The notes beneath the pieces are model-generated. The model searched no databases and was not told the origin of the DNA. It saw only the letters and a program-made list of their open reading frames with translations. This document shows, piece after piece, positions 1,184-27,001 of a DNA stretch of 38,034 nucleotides (its first letter is position 1; every line of letters begins with the position of its first letter). Source of the stretch: a virus (Duplodnaviria; Heunggongvirae; Uroviricota; Caudoviricetes). The DNA is taken from IMG/VR virus record IMGVR_UViG_2534681658_000022; one strand, 5' to 3'. Made by a program: the position numbers and the translations under genes.

Positions 1184-1666
1184 ATGGAAGAACTTCACTT
1201 TGTTTACATCAATGCAAATGGTCGTATCGGTGTTCACTCTATACAGGGCATCAGTTATAGCGAAAATCATATACAGGGCATTTGTAAGAACACCGATCGA
1301 ATAAAAACCTTCCGAAAAGACCGCATTCTTAAACAGTACGATTCACCAGAACAAGCCATTCAGGAATGCGCGTCATTCCTCCCCGAAAACTACTCACATC
1401 TCACTAAGCAGTCTGGTCCGAAAAAAAATACATTCGATGTGTGTTTCACCGGATTTAAGAAAGCAGATAAAGAAAGATTGGTTGATAAGGCGAATGAACA
1501 AGGATTAACGGTAAGAACCTCTGTAACCCAAAGCCTTCAGATGCTCTGTTGCGGTTACAATGCAGGCCCATCAAAAGTATCGGCAGCCAGGATGAAAGGC
1601 ACAATCATCATAGATGAGCCTGGCTTTATACATTTTCTTGAAACGGGTGAGATCCCAGATGAATAA
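1184..1666 (+). CDS. Hypothetical cargo protein with WYL-like N-terminal segment and BRCT-like C-terminal domain
   Basis: 160-aa ORF with AGAGG 7 nt upstream of the ATG. N-terminus has a QGICKNTDRIKTFRKDRI segment resembling the conserved WYL-domain core. C-terminus (FDVCFTGF...KERLVDKANEQGLTV...AGPSKVSAARMKGTIIIDE) resembles the BRCT domain of NAD-dependent DNA ligase. Domain calls are by eye. Confidence 0.6.
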   Translation: MEELHFVYINANGRIGVHSIQGISYSENHIQGICKNTDRIKTFRKDRILKQYDSPEQAIQECASFLPENYSHLTKQSGPKKNTFDVCFTGFKKADKERLVDKANEQGLTVRTSVTQSLQMLCCGYNAGPSKVSAARMKGTIIIDEPGFIHFLETGEIPDE

Positions 1667-8817: not shown

Positions 8818-8949
8818 AAGGCAGTCTCTCCGGTAGTAGAGGGGGTCTGCCTATGTTCTGGTTGATACGAGCAGGATGCACGTTATGTGGTTTGTATGAA
8901 AAATGGCACAACGGCGGATACAGGAATCCCCGCAGACGCGGGGATGTAT

Positions 8950-9384: not shown

Positions 9385-11114
9385 CAGACCCCCTCCGCAA
9401 TAAACCCAATATTCCATCCACCGTTATCTCCGGTGATGCTCAGAGTAAAGCCAGTTGCAGTAATAGCTGTAATGGCGACACCCTCAACACTCCCACCGTG
9501 TGACGAACGGAAAACGGGGATCACGTACCAGCACTGACGGGCAAATGGTGTCGGAAAATTCACCTGATACTCTTTATTCACCACACCAGTTGCCCCGGAA
9601 AAATAACTGTTAAAAAACTGCTTCAGCACACCGCCAGTTATTCGGTGATGATTGCTGCCAAATGAAAATTCATCTTCACAAACACCCCGACGCCATAGTG
9701 TTGTATTGTCTTTAACCGTATCAGAGCCGCTGAAACGGTGATACATTTCCCCTGCTCCGGTGATGAAAATCTGCGCGCGTCTGTTCTTGTTATACGCAGC
9801 CTGAAAACCTGCACCATTCGATGGCACTTCATCTGCATTACCTGAATATGCAAGAAACTGTGAAACCTCACCCATTTCGTAGTTATTATTGCTACCGATT
9901 CCGTATGCTCCCTGTTGCAGAGCACTTTCAGCCTTATCAACCGTCGGTTTAAGTCCCAGATTCTGAATAAACAAAGTCGGGTCAGGAATATCAGCACCAT
10001 TGCGGTCCTTTGCCAGTCTCGCGCTGGCGTTGTCCATCGCAATTTTTACCGCTTTCAATGTCGCCGCAACATTTTCTGACACGCTGTTTACCTCGTTCCC
10101 CAGTTGCACCATTCCTTTAACACTCACTGATGCTTCTGGATAATGTGCACTGGTGAACACCTGATTCCACGGTGTTTCATCATCGGCAATTTTCGATAAC
10201 ATGCTGAATCGACAGTACATCTTGCCATCATTAGCGACATAAATTTGTGCACGTCGATTGTCGTTGTAACAGGCCTGGAAACCAGCACCATGTGTTGGCA
10301 CTTCTGGATAGCCGACAGCTGTACCATAAGCAAAAAATTGCGATTTGGTTCCCATGGTTTTCAGATAAGCCAGGCCAATTCCATAATCTCCTGGCTGAAT
10401 CGCTGATGCAGCTTTATCAACAGTCGTTTTCAATCCCAGATTCTGAACAAACAGTGCCGGATTGGGAATATCAGAACCATTGCGGTCTTTTGCCAGTCTG
10501 GCGCTGGCATTATCCATCGCTATTTTCACTGCTTTTGGCGTTGCAGCGACTGTTTCATCATTGCTTTCCACACCGCTATACAGACGTACAAATCCCTTTT
10601 CTGTCAAAGACGCAGAAGGATGGCGGCGCGATTGCTCATGAATTTCTATTTGTTGATCTACATAATGACGGGTTGCCAGCACGACAGCAGGGTCGATTTT
10701 CAGGGGGATATTGTCCGTGCTGCTGGTAATCAGCACCATGCGCACGGTCTGGGTGCGCCCGCTGCCTTCAGCCAGTTGCGGCTTATAGCTTTCCGGGCAG
10801 TTGCCCACGGCAATCAATGCCCCGGACTCATCAAACAAGCCCACTTCACGTATCCACCAACCGCCCTCGTTTTCAGGGATCACCTGTTCGGCAATAATCT
10901 GACTGCTGTTCTGCGGGTCGATATAGAGCATATTCAGCGCAGCCCGGCGTTTCTCATTTACCAGTGCAGTCTGCTTTGAGTCTGGCGTTGGCAATACTCC
11001 GCCGCCATCGCCGACCGCCATATGGGTAATTTTTAGCGGCACACCGAGCGCGGCGGCGCTGGCAAGTTTCGCCGCGCCAATATCCGTCAGCAGGGTATAA
11101 AATTTTGTGCTCAT
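9384..11114 (-). CDS. H: Tail fiber protein
   Basis: 576-aa ORF between baseplate gene I and the fiber assembly gene; contains an internal tandem duplication of about 60 aa. Confidence 0.85.
   Translation of the reverse strand: MSTKFYTLLTDIGAAKLASAAALGVPLKITHMAVGDGGGVLPTPDSKQTALVNEKRRAALNMLYIDPQNSSQIIAEQVIPENEGGWWIREVGLFDESGALIAVGNCPESYKPQLAEGSGRTQTVRMVLITSSTDNIPLKIDPAVVLATRHYVDQQIEIHEQSRRHPSASLTEKGFVRLYSGVESNDETVAATPKAVKIAMDNASARLAKDRNGSDIPNPALFVQNLGLKTTVDKAASAIQPGDYGIGLAYLKTMGTKSQFFAYGTAVGYPEVPTHGAGFQACYNDNRRAQIYVANDGKMYCRFSMLSKIADDETPWNQVFTSAHYPEASVSVKGMVQLGNEVNSVSENVAATLKAVKIAMDNASARLAKDRNGADIPDPTLFIQNLGLKPTVDKAESALQQGAYGIGSNNNYEMGEVSQFLAYSGNADEVPSNGAGFQAAYNKNRRAQIFITGAGEMYHRFSGSDTVKDNTTLWRRGVCEDEFSFGSNHHRITGGVLKQFFNSYFSGATGVVNKEYQVNFPTPFARQCWYVIPVFRSSHGGSVEGVAITAITATGFTLSITGDNGGWNIGFIAEGV
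9941..10080. repeat. Tail-fiber internal repeat, copy 1 (about 85% identical to 10421-10560)
   Basis: Nucleotide blocks TCCCAGATTCTGAA...GAATATCAG.ACCATTGCGGTC.TTTGCCAGTCT.GCGCTGGC repeat 480 bp apart in frame, giving two VAAT.KAVKIAMDNASARLAKDRNG.DIP protein segments. Confidence 0.7.
10421..10560. repeat. Tail-fiber internal repeat, copy 2
   Basis: Second copy of the 140-nt block described for 9941-10080. Confidence 0.7.
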
Positions 11115-12617: not shown

Positions 12618-12963
12618 TCTCTGCTCCTGTTGATACGGAAAGGGAAACAGGTACACCGTTATTCCGCCGCCCGGTCAGCTCCACCACCATAGAACCGTCA
12701 AAGTTGCTGTTGATGGTGATGGAATCCAGCGTCAGCCGTGGCTCCCAGCGACTCAGCGCCACATACACTGCCGACATGACCTGCAGGCGTAATGCCGGAT
12801 TTTGTGGCTGATCTATTAAAACCGACAGGAGGGAACCATATTCCCGGCGGGCAATGCGGCTACCCTGCGGTGTCAGCAGAATGTCCCGCACCGACTGGCG
12901 CAGATGATCAATATCAGTAATGACTTTGCCGCTGGTATTGTTCATCCCGCTATAAAGCGTCAT
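12604..12963 (-). CDS. W: Baseplate wedge protein W
   Basis: 119-aa ORF with the gpW/gp25-like segment REYGSLLSVLIDQPQNPALRLQ; position between V and J. Confidence 0.85.
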   Translation of the reverse strand: MTLYSGMNNTSGKVITDIDHLRQSVRDILLTPQGSRIARREYGSLLSVLIDQPQNPALRLQVMSAVYVALSRWEPRLTLDSITINSNFDGSMVVELTGRRNNGVPVSLSVSTGAENGSD

Positions 12964-13538
12964 ACCGGGCCTCCGGTTGTATCGCCGCCTTTCAGGACAC
13001 CAGTATGCTGATGCGCATCAACCACAATCCCGTTAGAACTCATCGCACCGCCGCCCTGGGTAACGCCACCATTGATCACTACTTCGCTGTTAATTCGCGT
13101 GCGGTCAGCCTCCAGCACAAACTCACTGGTTTTCATGGTGATATTGTCAGCGGCCTCAATGACCATTGATTTGATGCCCCTGACATACCAGCGCCCGGTG
13201 GCGGGTTCGTATTCAAACCAGCTACCGTCAGGATGTTCTGTCACGCAGGCGTCCGCCGACGTCGACGGTGGTGCGAACTGATTCGAATAGACAGCGGGCA
13301 GCGCAAAGGCAGTCTCCAGATTACCGCCCAGACTCAGCAGCACCACCTGCTCACCTTCCGATGGTCGCCACCATGTGCGGGCATTACCGGCACGCAGCGT
13401 CAGCCAACTGATCCAGTTAGTTTCAAGGTCGCCCGTTTTCACCCGGCAAAGCCAGTTCTCCCGGTCCACTTCGGTGACTACACCAGTGCGGATCAGATTG
13501 GTGATAAGGCGCATGATTTCGGTTAATTGTGCGTTCAT
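12960..13538 (-). CDS. V: Baseplate spike/assembly protein V
   Basis: Start set at the internal Met (MNAQLTEIMRLITNLIRTG...). Contains the TWWRPSEGEQVV...AVYSNQ motif and a C-terminal HTG...GG.TTGGPV end typical of gpV. Confidence 0.8.
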   Translation of the reverse strand: MNAQLTEIMRLITNLIRTGVVTEVDRENWLCRVKTGDLETNWISWLTLRAGNARTWWRPSEGEQVVLLSLGGNLETAFALPAVYSNQFAPPSTSADACVTEHPDGSWFEYEPATGRWYVRGIKSMVIEAADNITMKTSEFVLEADRTRINSEVVINGGVTQGGGAMSSNGIVVDAHQHTGVLKGGDTTGGPV

Positions 13539-13626
13539 GCTGACAATATTGTTTCTTAAACTGAGTGATTGCATCGAAGTGGTTTTGTATGATTGCAGGC
13601 ACAAGTTGTAACTAAGGAGGCGATTG

Positions 13627-14064
13627 ATGAAATCTTGGAAAAACCGAGGATTTAAAAAAAGGGTTCTTGAATATGTTTACTGTTTCTCCGCTGCTCCATT
13701 TTTAGCCATGTTCTACACGTTGTCAGAAAACCAGCTGACAATGTTTATAATTTTCTTCACTGTGAGTTTTTATCTCACTCTGATGGCATCCGTTTTTTTA
13801 ACAAAACGAGGATTTAACAAAGTATTCAAAGAATTCTTTAATTTATTATGGAACTATGAAACGGCCTTCGTTTTTTGCTATGGCCTTTATACTTATCTTT
13901 ATAGAATTGATGGGCAGAAAACTTTATCAAACCTCCTTACCATTATGTTTTCAGCTCACCCATGGACACTTATTTTCGGCATCGGACTCTTGGTTTTCAC
14001 AGTAATTTTCAGGTTTGCTCTGAGTGTTGCTGACTTGCTAGTTGAAGTTAAGTCAGATATATAA
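13627..14064 (+). CDS. Hypothetical multi-pass membrane protein (moron, opposite strand within the late tail operon)
   Basis: AAGGAGG 6 nt upstream of the ATG at 13627. Markedly AT-rich. About four hydrophobic helices (e.g. LTMFIIFFTVSFYLTLMASVFL, WTLIFGIGLLVFTVIFRFALSV). Lies between S and V on the opposite strand. Confidence 0.6.
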   Translation: MKSWKNRGFKKRVLEYVYCFSAAPFLAMFYTLSENQLTMFIIFFTVSFYLTLMASVFLTKRGFNKVFKEFFNLLWNYETAFVFCYGLYTYLYRIDGQKTLSNLLTIMFSAHPWTLIFGIGLLVFTVIFRFALSVADLLVEVKSDI

Positions 14065-14088
14065 TGAAACAATACAACCATAGAATTT

Positions 14089-14538
14089 TTAGCTATTTAC
14101 CAGCCAATCACATAATATATCCTTGGTGAAATCTAAAACATCTTTGTTGCTTCCTAACAATTTCCGCTCTGCATAACGGACCTCAGGTCCTTTGCGACTG
14201 ACGCGATCACGCAAGCCGTAATGGTGAACGCGTGCAATGCGCTGCACCTTACCTTCAAACTGTACGCTGGCAGAATCAGCGCTGGCGGCAGTTTTCAGGT
14301 ATTTTGTGGTACGAAGCTTTGTAAACATCTGGCGTTTGATGCGCCCCTTTTTACTGCGTGCTGTTACCCGTCGCGGTTCATAGCTGCTGCCGTCAGGGTT
14401 GCGCTGCATCCTGATATTCTGCTGCTGTGTCCGGCGCAGTTCCTGCGCCAGCTGACGCATCATGCGAATTCTTGCGGCTGGCTCCAGATTCGCCAGCAAG
14501 GCACTCAGCCAGTCGTCCACTTTCTGCAGTTCAGCCAC
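14089..14538 (-). CDS. S: Tail completion protein S
   Basis: 149-aa basic protein at the P2 gpS position downstream of R. Confidence 0.8.
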   Translation of the reverse strand: MAELQKVDDWLSALLANLEPAARIRMMRQLAQELRRTQQQNIRMQRNPDGSSYEPRRVTARSKKGRIKRQMFTKLRTTKYLKTAASADSASVQFEGKVQRIARVHHYGLRDRVSRKGPEVRYAERKLLGSNKDVLDFTKDILCDWLVNS

Positions 14539-19977: not shown

Positions 19978-19995
19978 TGTACCGACAACCACACA
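19978..19995. promoter_or_regulatory. Candidate Ogr-type late-promoter activator site (TGT-N12-ACA)
   Basis: TGTACCGACAACCACACA in the divergent O/P intergenic region, about 45 bp upstream of the P start codon. Confidence 0.35.
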
Positions 19996-20041
19996 AACCG
20001 CAGGCGGGGAAAGCCTTCATTCAAGGCTGTAGGTTTGTGCC

Positions 20042-21808
20042 ATGAACACCACACTGACACCCGCAGATCTCGATCCCCGTCGGCAGGCCATGCTGCTGTA
20101 CTTTCAGGGATACCGCGTAGCCCGCATTGCTGAAATGCTGGGCGAGAAAGTTGCAACCGTTCACAGCTGGAAAAAACGCGACAAGTGGGGTGACTATGGG
20201 CCGCTGGATCAGATGCAGCTCACCACCGCCGCACGCTACTGCCAGCTCATTATGAAGGAGCACAAAGAAGGGAAAGATTTCAAAGAGATTGACCTGCTGG
20301 CGCGCCAGTCGGAACGCCACGCGCGGATCGGCAAGTTTAACAATGGCGGTAACGAAGCCGACTTAAACCCTAACGTCGCCAACCGCAACAAAGGCCCACG
20401 CCGTCAGCCGGAAAAGAACGTTTTCACCGATGAACAAATTGAGAAGCTGGAAGAAATTTTCCATTCCTCCATGTTCAACTACCAGCGCCACTGGTGGGAA
20501 GCCGGAAAAACCAACCGCATCCGCAACCTGCTGAAGTCTCGCCAGATCGGCGCGACCTTCTATTTTGCCCGTGAAGCCCTGATTGACGCCCTGCTGACCG
20601 GACGTAACCAGATTTTCCTTTCCGCCAGCAAGGCACAGGCCCACGTCTTTAAGCAGTACATCATCGACTTCGCCAAAGAAGTGGAGGTGGAGCTGAAAGG
20701 CGATCCGATGGTGCTTCCTAACGGGGCCACGCTTTACTTCCTCGGCACCAATGCCCGCACGGCCCAGAGTTATCACGGCAACCTGTATCTGGATGAATAT
20801 TTCTGGATCCCAAAATTCCAGGAGTTGCGCAAAGTGGCTTCCGGTATGGCTATTCACAAGAAATGGCGGCAGACCTATTTTTCCACACCATCCAGTCTGA
20901 CCCACAGTGCTTATCCGTTCTGGTCCGGTGCGCTGTTCAACCGTGGGCGCAACAAAGCTGACAAGGTGGACATCGACCTGTCCCACAGCAATCTGGCCCC
21001 CGGCCTGCTGTGCGCAGACGGGCAATACCGCCAGATAGTCACCGTGGAAGATGCGGTGCGCGGCGGCTGTAACCTGTTCGACCTTGACCAGTTGCGCATG
21101 GAGTACAGCCCGGACGAATACCAGAACCTGCTGATGTGCGAGTTTGTTGACGATCTCGCGTCCGTGTTCCCGCTCAGCGAGCTGCAGGCGTGCATGGTGG
21201 ACAGCTGGGAAGTCTGGACCGACTTTCATGCACTGGCTCTGCGCCCGTTTGGCTGGCGCGAAGTGTGGATCGGTTATGACCCGGCAAAAGGTACGCAGAA
21301 CGGCGACAGCGCCGGGTGCGTGGTGGTGGCACCGCCAGCCGTGCCTGGTGGTAAGTTCCGCATTCTTGAGCGTCACCAGTGGCGCGGGATGGACTTCCGC
21401 GCCCAGGCTGACGCCATCAAAAAACTGACCGAGCAGTACAACGTGACCTACATCGGCATCGACTCGACCGGCGTCGGCCACGGGGTTTACGAGAACGTGA
21501 AAGCGTTTTTTCCAGCCGTCCGGGAGTTTGTCTACAACCCCAACGTTAAAAACGCTCTGGTACTCAAGGCCTACGACATTATCAGCCACCGCCGTCTGGA
21601 GTTTGACGCCGGGCACACCGACATTGCGCAGTCATTCATGGCAATCCGTCGCGCCACCACCGCCAGTGGCAACCGCCCAACCTATGAAGCCAGCCGCAGC
21701 GAAGAAGCCAGCCACGCCGATCTGGCCTGGGCAACAATGCACGCACTGTTTAACGAACCGCTGCAGGGCGAGTCCGCCAATACCAGCAATATTGTGGAGA
21801 TTTTTTGA
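20042..21808 (+). CDS. P: Terminase ATPase (large) subunit P
   Basis: 588-aa ORF divergent from O, upstream of the portal gene. Confidence 0.92.
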   Translation: MNTTLTPADLDPRRQAMLLYFQGYRVARIAEMLGEKVATVHSWKKRDKWGDYGPLDQMQLTTAARYCQLIMKEHKEGKDFKEIDLLARQSERHARIGKFNNGGNEADLNPNVANRNKGPRRQPEKNVFTDEQIEKLEEIFHSSMFNYQRHWWEAGKTNRIRNLLKSRQIGATFYFAREALIDALLTGRNQIFLSASKAQAHVFKQYIIDFAKEVEVELKGDPMVLPNGATLYFLGTNARTAQSYHGNLYLDEYFWIPKFQELRKVASGMAIHKKWRQTYFSTPSSLTHSAYPFWSGALFNRGRNKADKVDIDLSHSNLAPGLLCADGQYRQIVTVEDAVRGGCNLFDLDQLRMEYSPDEYQNLLMCEFVDDLASVFPLSELQACMVDSWEVWTDFHALALRPFGWREVWIGYDPAKGTQNGDSAGCVVVAPPAVPGGKFRILERHQWRGMDFRAQADAIKKLTEQYNVTYIGIDSTGVGHGVYENVKAFFPAVREFVYNPNVKNALVLKAYDIISHRRLEFDAGHTDIAQSFMAIRRATTASGNRPTYEASRSEEASHADLAWATMHALFNEPLQGESANTSNIVEIF

Positions 21809-22873: not shown

Positions 22874-23545
22874 TTAAAAACCAAGCTCATCTCTGATTCT
22901 TGGGAATTTTTTCATTACTCGAATATCAGTTAATAAATGCCAACGCCAAAAAACAGAAAATGGATATGATACATTACACATTGGCTTTAGCTTATTCTTG
23001 GCCTCTTGGATTTCTTGTTCTGTGCTTCGATCACTGACAAGTTTCATTCTCCAACCAGTAAAGTAAAACAATTCATCTTGTAACTTCTCTGAGAGATTTG
23101 CTCTTGTAATGCCCCTCAACCCCGTACTCGAAGAGTTAAAACACTTATCTAATAATTTGACTGTATTTAAAACCTTTCTACTTGGTCTTTTTCTTCTTGG
23201 GTATACTTGAACACCACTCGTTATAGCGTTCCCTGCGAGATGAACAATCTCACTGAAAACATCAACATCACTCTTTGTGCAATCAAGTAAGTTTTCAAAA
23301 GAATCACTTTTAATACTATTGCATCGACTGCAAGCTAAAAATAGATTGTTCCAATCATATTTGAGCTCATCAAGATCACGATGTGGAATAAAATGTTCTA
23401 TCTCTGGATCCATAAGATTACCTTGCTCACAGAGATAACATTTTCCATGAAATATTTCGTCTAAAGCATTTACAACTGTTTTATGGTTATATACTTTTCT
23501 CGACAAGCATTGAGGTGCAGGAATATTTCTAGTAACATTAAACAT
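22874..23545 (-). CDS. HNH endonuclease, Septu PtuB-like
   Basis: 223 aa with an N-terminal HNH motif (HGKCYLCE...EIEHFIPH...NLFLACSRCNSIK). AT-rich. Overlaps the upstream ATPase gene by 8 nt. Confidence 0.75.
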   Translation of the reverse strand: MFNVTRNIPAPQCLSRKVYNHKTVVNALDEIFHGKCYLCEQGNLMDPEIEHFIPHRDLDELKYDWNNLFLACSRCNSIKSDSFENLLDCTKSDVDVFSEIVHLAGNAITSGVQVYPRRKRPSRKVLNTVKLLDKCFNSSSTGLRGITRANLSEKLQDELFYFTGWRMKLVSDRSTEQEIQEAKNKLKPMCNVSYPFSVFWRWHLLTDIRVMKKFPRIRDELGF

Positions 23546-24776
23546 CGTCTTCCCTTTCGCTATAATCTAAATATTTACTCTTAGCGATCATAAAAGCTGC
23601 TTTTGAACTTTTATCAAGAAAATCAATACTCTTCTGTAACGTTTTCATTATAGAATGAAATCTATCGTCGAAGACATTATTTTCTACTAAAGTCATTAAT
23701 TCTTTAACTAATGCATTTAGCTTATCCGAAGATACATCCTCACCCAACAATCCCTTTATAATTGCTGTGTAAGAATACAATGATAAATCACCCATCTGAT
23801 CCAATGTTGAGAGATTAAATATAATCGCATCAGATACTGATTGGATTACGAAAGGTGAATGCGTAGAAACAATAAATTGTATTTGCGGAAAAGATGATGA
23901 AAAAAAACTAAATACTTTCTTTTGCAATGTTACATGAAGATGAGCATCAATTTCATCAATAAGTACTATCCCTGTCATATCATGTTTTCTGATTTTATCA
24001 AGCTCTGCTTTTATCAATAAATCAGTATAAATAGAAAGAATTGATGAAAAACCAGATGACAACTTATCAAGTCCAAATGGTTCCTTATTATTTTGTAAAA
24101 GATAGATTTTCAACTTGTCGAGATCAAAATCCATTCTAATACTTTCATCTTCAAAAAGTTCTTTTAAGTCATCATTAATACTCTCAATAATATCAAAGGC
24201 TCTTTTATAGTCATCATCCTTGCCCACTCCCTTACTGACTAAAGCATAATTCCACAATGTAACTATGTATCTTTCAAAATACATACCAGCATCAATCTTA
24301 GAATTATTTCTCTGTGCGTTCCCATACTCAGTTAACAACAAATCGAGGCTGCTAATCTTACCATCATTTTTTATTTTCGCTTCTCGAATAGCAGGAAATA
24401 ATCTTATAATTGATTTTTTCTTTTTTGCAGCAACCCTGAAATCAACCACATCATTAAAAGTAATATCAAAGCTCTCAAATTCTTTTAATTTTTCTTTCAG
24501 TCTCTCAATTTCTTCGTTTAAATAGCTATAATTACCATCCCCTCTATTTGAATACTTTAAGTTTTCTTGACTGGAATTCAATTCCTTTTGTAGCTGCTCC
24601 TTAGTATAAGGATCATGTGAATTAATCGATTTTTCTATAAACTCATAAATATTCTCGATCAACCTAGTTTTACCAGAGCCATTATCTCCTGATATTATTA
24701 GATTCTTACCATCAAGATTTAATGTGTAAGGCTCATCGTTCCTTTTAAAGAAGATAGTTTCGATGAAATGTCGCAT
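23538..24776 (-). CDS. ABC/AAA-type ATPase, Septu PtuA-like
   Basis: Walker A GDNGSGKT, Walker B/D-loop VLIDEIDAHLH, and STHSP motif. Start set at the ATG preceded by GGGAGG; the tracked ORF starts at 24791. Confidence 0.75.
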   Translation of the reverse strand: MRHFIETIFFKRNDEPYTLNLDGKNLIISGDNGSGKTRLIENIYEFIEKSINSHDPYTKEQLQKELNSSQENLKYSNRGDGNYSYLNEEIERLKEKLKEFESFDITFNDVVDFRVAAKKKKSIIRLFPAIREAKIKNDGKISSLDLLLTEYGNAQRNNSKIDAGMYFERYIVTLWNYALVSKGVGKDDDYKRAFDIIESINDDLKELFEDESIRMDFDLDKLKIYLLQNNKEPFGLDKLSSGFSSILSIYTDLLIKAELDKIRKHDMTGIVLIDEIDAHLHVTLQKKVFSFFSSSFPQIQFIVSTHSPFVIQSVSDAIIFNLSTLDQMGDLSLYSYTAIIKGLLGEDVSSDKLNALVKELMTLVENNVFDDRFHSIMKTLQKSIDFLDKSSKAAFMIAKSKYLDYSEREDDV

Positions 24777-25228: not shown

Positions 25229-25882
25229 ATGAATAAATACAAACTTTTCGCACAGCTATCAAGATATTCATTTGAAGCGCAGATTGATGATTTCGAAAAA
25301 TATATCCTAGGAGCAGGCGGCCAAAACAGAGTTGACTTATCGGAATTAAAAAAAGCATATGAAGATGAAAAAAAGAATGCTCCTGACGATTATATTAATT
25401 ACTTAGAAGACTATTATTCAGAGCAATATGATTTCTTAGTTAACATACAACCAAATATTTTTAATAAATCTGCTTTGGTATCTTTATACTCATGCTTAGA
25501 GCACAACCTAAACGACTATTGCAATATATGTCAAAGGATTGTAAACACCAATATATCAGTAACCGATTTTAATGGTGATGGCATCCACAAAGCAAAAAGA
25601 TATTTAACAAAATTAATGGATATAAACTTTGGCCTGTCACAAGAGTGGCGATTCATGACAGAGTTTAACAAAGTAAGGAATTGCATAGTTCATGCTAATG
25701 GAGACATTAAAAAAATGAGCACAGCTGTAGCCTTAAAAGATATCATTGATAAAACACCTACTCTTTCATTAAACAATGAAAATAATATAATAATCTCCTT
25801 AAATTATTTAAAAGATACTATCACAAAAATTAGAAAACTCTTTCAATGGTTATATACACATCTGGATCAATCATCGAAATGA
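25229..25882 (+). CDS. Hypothetical protein with HEPN-type RNxxxH motif (candidate abortive-infection effector)
   Basis: 217-aa AT-rich ORF with TATAAT at 25203-25208 upstream. Motif RNCIVH at residues about 151-156. No recognisable phage function. Confidence 0.55.
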   Translation: MNKYKLFAQLSRYSFEAQIDDFEKYILGAGGQNRVDLSELKKAYEDEKKNAPDDYINYLEDYYSEQYDFLVNIQPNIFNKSALVSLYSCLEHNLNDYCNICQRIVNTNISVTDFNGDGIHKAKRYLTKLMDINFGLSQEWRFMTEFNKVRNCIVHANGDIKKMSTAVALKDIIDKTPTLSLNNENNIIISLNYLKDTITKIRKLFQWLYTHLDQSSK

Positions 25883-26134: not shown

Positions 26135-27001
26135 TTAGATGGCTTTGCTTCGATATTCAATTTCTAAAATCGCCTTTGTCATTGCCGCAATAGTTATAGC
26201 TTCTACCATAGTCAATTCAGGCTTGTTCAAGCTTCCGTGTCCAGCAGTAGGTAATTTGTTACGTAAATCATAAATATCTTTAACAGCATCAATAAGATTC
26301 TTAGGTAATTTTGACATTTTTTCGAACTGTTTAAAAAAACCACCCAATGACTCATTTGCCACATTCGGGTTTTGAGTGATTTCCTTAGCCATAGTTTCTA
26401 AAACATTAGAGGCTGCGTGCAGTGCACCTGCCGGATCATTATTATCCAAGCAATTATTCATTCTATCTATTTGCTGAACGATATTTGGGTGCAATCTCTT
26501 TAAGTAATCACTAGCCAATTCTTCATTGAAATTTTTGACACTTTCAAAAACATCGCAATCTAAATAAAATTTAGGATTGACTGACATCCATGTATATTTC
26601 CAATCATTTTCTAAATTATCTTTTTCCGCAATACGCCTGCCAGTGTCCTGATCTATCTCATCAACATATTTACACATATAATCGGCGTAGTAGTGTAAAT
26701 ATCTAAATGATATTTCTGGGCAAAAATTACTAACTGATGCAAGGCCGCCATATTCTTTTGTAGTAACTGTAGGGACTTCTTCATCACATAAAGATGAGAA
26801 AGTGGTTCTTTCCCAAAATTCGCCCAACTCTTTTTCTTTCCTAGTTGCCATACCAGCTATCATATTGATGCTTGAGAGCAAAACTACACTCTGATAGTAT
26901 CGAGGACATCTGTATGAACTAGCATATGGGCATATTGATGATGCTTTACGATTAATACGCTCTTTTTCCCACCAATTTTTATCAGGAATAATTCTTTGCA
27001 T
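26135..27001 (-). CDS. Hypothetical protein, Cys-rich N-terminus (uncharacterised hotspot cargo)
   Basis: 288-aa AT-rich ORF, convergent with the 217-aa gene. N-terminal cysteines (CPY...C.RYY...CPE...CKY); C-terminal region with LRNKLPTAGHG. No recognised family; the true start may be a downstream Met. Confidence 0.55.
   Translation of the reverse strand: MQRIIPDKNWWEKERINRKASSICPYASSYRCPRYYQSVVLLSSINMIAGMATRKEKELGEFWERTTFSSLCDEEVPTVTTKEYGGLASVSNFCPEISFRYLHYYADYMCKYVDEIDQDTGRRIAEKDNLENDWKYTWMSVNPKFYLDCDVFESVKNFNEELASDYLKRLHPNIVQQIDRMNNCLDNNDPAGALHAASNVLETMAKEITQNPNVANESLGGFFKQFEKMSKLPKNLIDAVKDIYDLRNKLPTAGHGSLNKPELTMVEAITIAAMTKAILEIEYRSKAI

Follow-up and report, generated by a model that had tools for sequence, protein, structure and literature searches.

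Genes at the S–V junction

The window analysed here is the full 38,034-nucleotide stretch of the IMG/VR virus record IMGVR_UViG_2534681658_000022 (Caudoviricetes), and the subject of this report is a small open reading frame (ORF) that lies between the late genes S and V, on the strand opposite to both (Table 1). We refer to it as the cargo ORF. An original prediction, made from the letters of the sequence, had placed a membrane-protein gene at this position on the plus strand, and the ORF was indeed found there, with the genes on either side named by Pfam as gpV and gpS and with gpR as a further minus-strand neighbour (Pfam, 5e-46). The cargo ORF and gpS are convergent, with their stop codons 24 nt apart, and the cargo ORF stands back to back with the predicted V-operon promoter, P_V. 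The start of gpV was set at the ATG at 13538, not at the TTG at 13604 of the longest ORF, on the basis of the alignment to Escherichia phage 500465-1 and of the annotation by the Prokaryotic Genome Annotation Pipeline (PGAP). The prophages beside ssrA in the Escherichia coli genome ETEC-2265 and in five other E. coli genomes are identical to the window over this region. According to PGAP, the ETEC-2265 prophage is a complete 186/P2-like prophage with the genes ogr, D, U, T, E, FII, FI, G, H, I, J, W, V, S, and R, the lysis genes, and X, L, M, N, O, P, Q, A, CII, and CI, and the coding sequence annotated at the position of the cargo ORF is the "hypothetical protein" WP_024169309.1.

Table 1. 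Positions of the cargo ORF and of other features in the window
Feature	Position	Strand	Description
gpV, baseplate spike	12960-13538	-	First gene of the V late operon; Pfam Phage_base_V (6e-18) and Apex
Replaceable AT-rich cassette	13539-14165		About 630 bp; P_V region, cargo ORF, and last ~25 gpS codons
Candidate sigma-70 promoter, weak	13565-13593	+	Best candidate; -35 GTGATT, 17-nt spacer, -10 TATGAT; 8 of 12 matches
TGT-N12-ACA dyad	13586-13603		Predicted Ogr/Delta-type activator site of P_V, which fires leftward into gpV; pattern match
Shine-Dalgarno sequence TAAGGAGG	13613-13620	+	6 nt 5' of the cargo ATG; read in the sequence
Cargo ORF	13627-14064	+	ATG 13627, TAA 14062-14064; 145 aa; predicted N-in/C-in inner-membrane protein with four transmembrane helices
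gpS, tail completion protein	14089-14538	-	Last gene of the O late operon; Pfam Phage_tail_S (2e-39)
Septu pair PtuB/PtuA	22874-23545 and 23538-24776	-	Just downstream of the portal gene, classical old/tin hotspot
Two further ORFs after Septu	25229-25882, 26135-27001	+, -	
160-aa hypothetical ORF	1184-1666	+	Between ssrA and ogr, at the prophage end; weak PDC-S48 match

The product was first given as 146 amino acids and is in fact 145 amino acids long, the extra residue corresponding to an in-frame TTG at 13624 or to a counted stop codon. The near-consensus ribosome-binding site that had been proposed was confirmed as TAAGGAGG; this sequence is kept in the E. coli and Citrobacter alleles, and Shine-Dalgarno-like motifs lie 5' of most other alleles of the protein family described below. 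The strong AT bias was likewise borne out, with a GC content of 0.35 for the ORF itself and of 0.34-0.37 when 13600-14199 is read in 300-nt windows, compared with 0.52-0.61 in both flanks. Such a deviation from the base composition of the phage backbone is what is expected of a moron or a horizontally transferred cassette, and all alleles of the family are similarly AT-rich, with GC contents of 0.31-0.38.

A replaceable cassette in the S–V slot

The borders of the cassette were located with blastn comparisons of the window against 17 related loci. In 16 of them, homology broke off on the left within 13525-13660, in 12 of these 16 cases at or within 3 nt of position 13538 (the V ATG), and resumed on the right at 14112-14201; only locus L003 aligned without a break. 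On the basis of the breakpoints in these 16 comparisons, the exchangeable unit can be placed at approximately 13539-14165, so that the approximately 25 C-terminal residues of gpS (14089-14165) are encoded by cassette DNA. The gpS C-termini vary by cassette type and retain the pattern LLG..N....L..WL. The left breakpoint is sharp, and the right one, at about 14150-14200, falls within the last ~25 gpS codons. With every type of cassette there consequently comes a separate P_V promoter region and a separate, diverged C-terminal tail of gpS.

In the comparison between the window and the Citrobacter prophage, the synonymous divergence (dS) was 0.14 for the cargo ORF, far below the values for V (0.81) and S (0.56), which shows that the cassette has moved recently between diverged phages. 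Escherichia phage 500465-1 and Klebsiella phage 4LV2017 are the closest phages; their V and S genes are 94-95% identical to those of the window and lie adjacent to each other, and the V-S span is 1,214 bp, compared with 1,699 bp in the window. In phage Cartapus, an unrelated ORF for a soluble protein of 176 amino acids is found at the same place and on the same strand. Among 5,426 complete E. coli genomes, the cargo cassette was present in only 6, whereas this V/S type was present in 1,047. The location between gpS and gpV and the presence or absence among close relatives are both features expected of a moron or horizontally transferred cassette. Taken together, these comparisons indicate that the cargo gene is an accessory, horizontally acquired gene on a cassette that is swapped by recombination, in agreement with the earlier description of an opposite-strand membrane-protein cargo in the S–V slot. 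The orf30 region has been described as one of three sites of horizontal transfer in P2-like phages (PMC3091744, citing Nilsson & Haggard-Ljungquist 2007; PMC6823313).

One of the outcomes that, according to the original prediction, would overturn it is that the protein is a conserved virion or assembly component of related phages. This role was rejected, given that the gene lies on the strand opposite to the late operons and is missing from the sequenced viable relatives and from 50,697 GenBank phage records searched with tblastn.

A conserved and unnamed protein family

The homologs of the cargo protein became visible only with increasingly sensitive searches. A word-indexed search returned two clusters, from E. 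coli and Citrobacter, and an exhaustive phmmer search returned nine representatives of 141-162 amino acids with identities of 26-48%. A profile search then identified at least 59 clusters at E <= 1e-3, all of them "hypothetical" or unnamed and without a Pfam domain. The named clusters were all from Enterobacterales (Escherichia, Citrobacter, Salmonella, Enterobacter, Pantoea, Leclercia, Kosakonia, Cedecea, Lelliottia, Scandinavium, and Pectobacterium). The cargo ORF does not stand alone: it is one allele of a family that holds this slot across many enterobacterial P2-like prophages.

Residues K68, W75, N76, and F83 were invariant in all family alignments. R129 was invariant in a set of 38 sequences and conserved at 90% or more in an alignment of 69 sequences, in which N72, T79, A80, and Y85 also reached at least 90%. 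Two motifs characterize the family, (Y/F)K(N/E)xxNA(I/L)WNxETAxxFxYG and RAxxSxAE(I/L). The ratio of nonsynonymous to synonymous divergence (dN/dS) was 0.06-0.24 across family pairs with dS values of 0.1-1.4, indicating that the family is under purifying selection. For the pair formed by the window and Citrobacter alleles, dN/dS was 0.53 overall, with zero nonsynonymous changes in codons 67-92.

None of the curated collections provided a name for this family. With Pfam-A, the cargo protein and 19 members gave Jagunal as the best match (E = 0.7) and no family common to more than two of the 19; the PHROG matches to the cargo protein had E values of 0.039 or worse and included no holin or antiholin; NCBIfam gave no match; and none of the PADLOC-DB 2.0 models matched at E <= 1. 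No holin, GtrA, or colicin-immunity match rose above threshold in Pfam-A, NCBIfam, or PHROGs. A sequence-profile comparison with solved structures returned only HIG1 (E = 0.16), and a scan of species-representative genomes detected no family loci. Tblastn searches with three family members against the 50,697 GenBank phage records, and with the window protein against 72,556 PLSDB plasmids, found no true homolog, with the qualification that the low-complexity filter may lower the sensitivity for transmembrane proteins. What is new here is a conserved, unannotated family tied to the S–V slot, together with the defence-like cargo of that slot; the type of locus was already known, and a hypothetical membrane-protein moron is in itself ordinary.

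The conservation of the family bears directly on whether the ORF is a gene at all. A chance or decaying ORF without function, left in AT-rich junk by an earlier cassette exchange, would be compatible with the great rarity of the cargo allele and with the dN/dS of 0.53 when the window and Citrobacter pair is taken alone. However, shuffling of the 612-nt AT-rich segment gave an open frame of at least 146 codons only 4 times in 5,000, the at least 59 homologous clusters are intact and share invariant residues, the other family pairs have the low dN/dS ratios given above, and the Shine-Dalgarno motifs are conserved. Family conservation effectively refutes this explanation on comparative grounds, and we give it almost no credence. 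The coding status follows from the conserved family and the purifying selection independently of the shuffle test, and the sequence comparisons indicate that the cargo ORF is a real, functional gene that is selectively maintained.

Predicted membrane topology

The four-helix membrane architecture that had been proposed was supported by two kinds of prediction. The hydropathy profile showed two strong peaks at approximately residues 39-58 and 113-135 and two weaker ones at approximately 15-32 and 72-92. AlphaFold2 predicted helices at residues 5-32, 38-60, 64-94, 100-110, and 112-138, of which four are long and one is short. The mean predicted local distance difference test score (pLDDT) was 73 with 19 input sequences and fell to 62 with 69; both models had the same secondary structure. 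The tertiary packing in these models is not reliable, and no argument is drawn from it here.

The distribution of positive charge and the column entropy were calculated for each segment from 38 family sequences (Table 2). By the positive-inside rule, the charge distribution predicts that the N-terminus, loop 2, and the C-terminus are cytoplasmic, and therefore a topology of four transmembrane (TM) helices with both ends inside. In such an arrangement, the conserved polar residues K68, N72, W75, N76, T79, and R129 would be placed where TM3 and TM4 end on the cytoplasmic side, forming a predicted cluster at the cytoplasmic leaflet of the membrane. The periplasmic loops and TM1-2, in turn, are hypervariable across the family.

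Table 2. Mean number of lysine and arginine residues and column entropy of each predicted segment
Segment	Mean K+R	Column entropy
N-tail	3.1	1.92
TM1	0.7	2.47
Loop 1 (periplasmic)	0.3	2.81
TM2	1.1	2.54
Loop 2	3.4	1.80
TM3	0.1	1.34
Loop 3 region (periplasmic)	1.7	2.73
TM4	1.2	1.89
C-tail	4.2	2.26

Location of family members and other cargo of the slot

When the W, V, S, and R proteins of the window were used as tblastn queries, 19 of 22 IMG/VR loci carried a family member in the S–V slot on the opposite strand. Across these viral loci, the identity of the member ranged from 26 to 100% and that of V from 38 to 100%, and allele identity did not track the identity of V or S (for example, V was 84% identical where the protein was 26-51% identical). 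On this evidence, co-evolution of the cargo protein with gpV was rejected. The same slot and orientation were found on contigs of E. coli, Citrobacter, Enterobacter, Salmonella (24 contigs), and Pantoea and on metagenome contigs. A minority of members lie elsewhere: in a Pectobacterium island with AlpA and H-NS, at a position next to a portal remnant and a DUF4062 gene, in a chromosomal islet adjoining symE, and in a Kosakonia islet. No conserved partner gene was found in any family context, and the distribution indicates that the cargo is a single gene that is faithful to its slot. In a chromosomal islet of the Kosakonia type (locus L050, 2-490 and 1003-1491), two genes for 162-amino-acid proteins stand in tandem, at least one of which is a family member; the pair may have arisen when the family was duplicated locally, away from any prophage.

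For E. coli prophages of this V/S type, the contents of the slot were also surveyed in a spread sample. The slot was empty in most of the sampled prophages and otherwise held single AT-rich genes. These encoded DUF6216 proteins (including the one in BL21(DE3)), a DUF5677 protein, several hypothetical proteins, an FRG-domain protein that corresponds to the PADLOC candidate PDC-S15 (E = 8.5e-32), and a TIR-domain protein similar to PDC-S66/ThsB, which is co-oriented with the late genes. At locus L034, an Old homolog (PADLOC Old, 5.6e-71) with an OLD-like TOPRIM domain comes after a family member. Across the loci L040-L045, L002, L012, and L034, the slot behaves as a hotspot for single-gene swaps, with cargo that mostly opposes the late genes, is always AT-rich, and often contains several TM helices. 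In one viral contig (locus L028, 4475-5923), the slot holds a family member and then several small ORFs, one of which encodes 193 amino acids and has a sub-threshold match to an Apea-like HEPN domain (E = 3.4e-4). The P2 Orf30, DUF6216, and KO11 cargo proteins also have multiple TM helices, yet they are unrelated to the cargo family; profile comparisons of the family with DUF6216 and with the KO11 cargo were negative. In the portions searched of three studies of hotspots (PMC9122126, PMC13586616, and 10.1101/2024.10.15.618418), the S–V slot is not named as a hotspot, although one study does refer to hotspots "within the tail genes" in general.

Position relative to the late operons and expression

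The cargo ORF had been described as lying inside the late tail operon, and this did not hold. P2 has four late operons (PQ, ONMLKRS, VWJIHG, and FI-D) whose promoters share the element TGT-N12-ACA, and its V operon begins at the Ogr-dependent promoter P_V (PMC3931495). In the P2 record, the S-V gap contains, in order, the S stop codon, the O-operon terminator, orf30, the activator site of P_V, and the transcription start of V, and orf30 is a non-essential gene on the opposite strand that encodes 261 amino acids. By this map, the O and V operons meet in the S-V gap, and the window keeps the P_V activator site. The TGT-N12-ACA pattern as such occurs at chance frequency in the window (10 observed, 9.4 expected), so the assignment of the predicted activator site (Table 1) rests on its position and alignment. 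When seven P2-like phages are aligned, the dyad falls on the annotated activator site of P2, its spacing to the V ATG is constant, and its TGT and ACA are invariant. Two further dyads lie at the expected places of late promoters, one at 8893-8910 in the G-FI interval (P_F) and one at 19978-19995 in the O-P interval (the divergent P_O/P_P pair), as would fit a full complement of Ogr-type late promoters. Another dyad overlaps the start codon of P, at 20036-20053, and could be due to chance.

Because it lies on the strand opposite to all of the late operons and P_V is directed away from it, the cargo gene cannot be a late gene and needs a promoter of its own. Activation of the cargo ORF by Ogr was considered and rejected, since a promoter using the dyad at -55 would start near position 13650, within the ORF. 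The best candidate for a sigma-70 promoter in our own scan of 13400-13640 is weak (Table 1) and falls under the threshold of a standard scan. Both of its hexamers are the same in the Citrobacter allele and are not conserved in distant alleles. This putative cargo promoter overlaps the late-activator dyad, and if the candidate is real, it would be occluded when the activator binds late in infection.

Late transcription had also been expected to run antisense through the ORF. Given the operon boundary, this could happen solely by read-through from S, which is possible, as no terminator like that of P2 is visible here. In P2, a strong hairpin stands between the convergent genes S and orf30, and we observed this O-operon terminator as a perfect 12-bp palindrome with an 11-nt loop (9397-9433 in the P2 record; 898-934 in locus L012). 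No convincing terminator was found on either strand near the cargo ORF, a negative that carries little weight because the consensus scan also misses the annotated P2 terminator. With regard to RNA elements, Rfam gave nothing in the cargo region, and local folds there were no better than those of shuffled sequences.

Comparison with known systems

The closest functional analog of the cargo family is the superinfection exclusion protein SieA of phage P22. SieA is a 162-164-amino-acid protein of the inner membrane that is expressed from its own promoter; its gene lies on the opposite strand, convergent with the late gene 16 and 22 nt from it, in a fixed slot of P22-like prophages, and SieA types that are only ~25% identical share a motif on the cytoplasmic side (PMC10883804). 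The cargo protein is similarly small, with three or four TM helices and an inner-membrane location predicted or shown for the two proteins. In both systems, a single gene opposes the late genes, converges on the preceding late gene with a short gap between the stop codons (24 nt here), occupies one fixed slot in the virion-gene region across a group of phages, and exists as alleles that diverge down to ~25% identity around a short conserved motif on the cytoplasmic side. However, no sequence or profile similarity was detected between the two families (hhalign probability, 0.1%), the SieA motif FxRYPxEAxxFNK is missing from the cargo-family alignment, and the hosts of the two genes are P22-like podoviruses and Peduoviridae myoviruses, with different slots. 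By analogy, the cargo family may also act in exclusion.

The P2 orf30 gene shares the S–V locus, the opposite strand, the AT-richness, and the non-essential nature of the cargo gene, and Orf30 also has multiple TM helices. The original prediction named a small ORF in this slot of P2; the ORF exists, and with 261 amino acids it is not small, and its sequence is unrelated to that of the cargo protein (hhalign probability, 0.3%). RexB of phage lambda resembles the cargo protein in being prophage-encoded, in its length of ~144-145 amino acids, and in its four TM helices in the inner membrane. In contrast, it shows no homology (hhalign probability, 0.15%; no Pfam RexB match) and works with the adjacent RexA, whereas the cargo gene has no conserved partner in any of the slot contexts. 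Another small membrane-protein moron situated among the tail genes of a temperate phage is HK97 gp15, likened here by description, which is smaller, has fewer TM helices, and belongs to a different group of phages. HK97 gp15 is reported to be a superinfection exclusion protein (cited in PMC11436027, its ref. 8).

At the level of the locus, the old/tin (near gpQ) and Z/fun hotspots of P2-like phages are similar in that conserved core genes enclose AT-rich accessory cargo, which turns over quickly in the manner of cassettes. The window prophage has a Septu system at its gpQ-side hotspot, and the S–V slot of other prophages holds PADLOC candidates. The S–V slot differs from those hotspots in that it usually holds one gene and is empty in most of the sampled E. 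coli prophages.

Possible function of the cargo gene

From the analogy with SieA and from the company that the gene keeps in its slot, superinfection exclusion or another form of defence appears to be its most plausible function. That the product protects the lysogen from other phages is a serious possibility, falling a little short of probable, and it is suggested by the defence-type genes (TIR, FRG/PDC-S15, and Old) that occupy the same slot and by the SieA analogy. Under this scenario, a weak sigma-70 promoter of its own would drive the gene in the lysogen, where the Ogr-dependent late operons would be silent, and the protein would act alone in the inner membrane to protect the lysogen against incoming phages. 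It would most plausibly block the delivery of the genome across the inner membrane, as SieA does in P22; action as a membrane-acting abortive-infection effector seems less plausible. We infer both the expression from the prophage and the anti-phage function.

A more specific and more speculative proposal, which we regard as unlikely on the whole, is that the family is the Peduoviridae counterpart of SieA, excluding related phages with contractile tails at the inner membrane, and that the S–V junction is a third, overlooked, single-gene defence hotspot. In that case, the spike, the tape-measure protein, or the DNA would be stopped from crossing the inner membrane; specificity would come from the hypervariable periplasmic face, and the invariant cytoplasmic K-N-W-N...R cluster would anchor the protein to a conserved host partner. 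A non-exhaustive literature search turned up no inner-membrane superinfection exclusion protein of P2-like phages.

Other functions must be weighed against protection of the lysogen. The strongest competitor, itself improbable in our estimation, is a lysogenic-conversion factor unrelated to phages, concerned with immunity to bacteriocins or tailocins, tolerance of envelope stress, or the handling of small solutes or ions. Stand-alone members occur in non-phage chromosomal islets of Kosakonia, Pectobacterium, and others, the cargo allele is found mainly in clinical isolates of enterotoxigenic E. coli (ETEC), and the size, the three or four TM helices, and the opposite-strand arrangement resemble the immunity genes of pore-forming colicins. 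However, the 19 members examined carry no transporter, immunity, or other Pfam or NCBIfam signature, no bacteriocin or toxin gene is linked to them, and the strong fidelity of the family to a prophage slot whose other cargo is of the defence type suits conflict between phages better. A function in the lytic cycle, either as an antiholin- or holin-like regulator of lysis timing or membrane state or as an aid in tail or baseplate assembly, has a small chance of being correct. The gene does lie among the morphogenesis and lysis genes, with lysB/lysC ~1.4 kb and the holin gene 2.3 kb away, and the protein is small and holin-like in its multiple TM helices and has long been retained in one slot. 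Its strand, however, is opposite to that of every late and lysis gene, with P_V directed away; most close relatives, among them the viable phages 500465-1 and 4LV2017, lack it; the searches gave no match to a holin, an antiholin, or a PHROG; and unrelated soluble proteins fill the slot in other phages.

A selfish or addictive membrane toxin, or a silenced toxic effector, on a cassette that persists by recombination and not by any benefit would account for a small hydrophobic protein encoded by AT-rich DNA with a strong Shine-Dalgarno sequence, and one subfamily adjoins the SymE type-I toxin locus. Its chance of being right is very small. No conserved antitoxin or antisense partner accompanies the family, Rfam again gave nothing, and a protein of 145 amino acids with four TM helices exceeds typical type-I toxins. 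Moreover, the purifying selection over deep divergence and the motif on the cytoplasmic face suggest a specific interaction, not generic membrane damage.

Protection of the lysogen is the preferred reading. P2-like prophages are present in approximately one-fifth of complete E. coli genomes, at the count given above for this V/S type alone, and are now a main hunting ground for anti-phage systems. The search for such systems has focused on the Z/fun hotspot and the one near gpQ. The S–V ("orf30") junction behaves as another swap site, with TIR, FRG/PDC-S15, and Old-type genes and several unrelated membrane proteins. Within it, one uncharacterized four-TM family has kept its position across Escherichia, Salmonella, Citrobacter, Enterobacter, Pantoea, and others, at identities down to ~20%. 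As a single gene of 438 bp, it is a concrete and cheaply testable candidate for exclusion. If its function is otherwise, the result is a routine annotation of a hypothetical membrane-protein moron in a known variable site.

Other features of the prophage

The cargo gene is not the only accessory gene in the window. At the gpQ-side hotspot, PtuB (HNH; PADLOC E = 1.8e-82) and PtuA (AAA ATPase; 7.1e-122) form a complete Septu pair, which is followed by two further, unassigned ORFs (Table 1). At the prophage end, the 160-amino-acid hypothetical protein encoded between ssrA and ogr matches the PADLOC candidate PDC-S48 at E = 1.7e-7 over its C-terminal 70 residues only.

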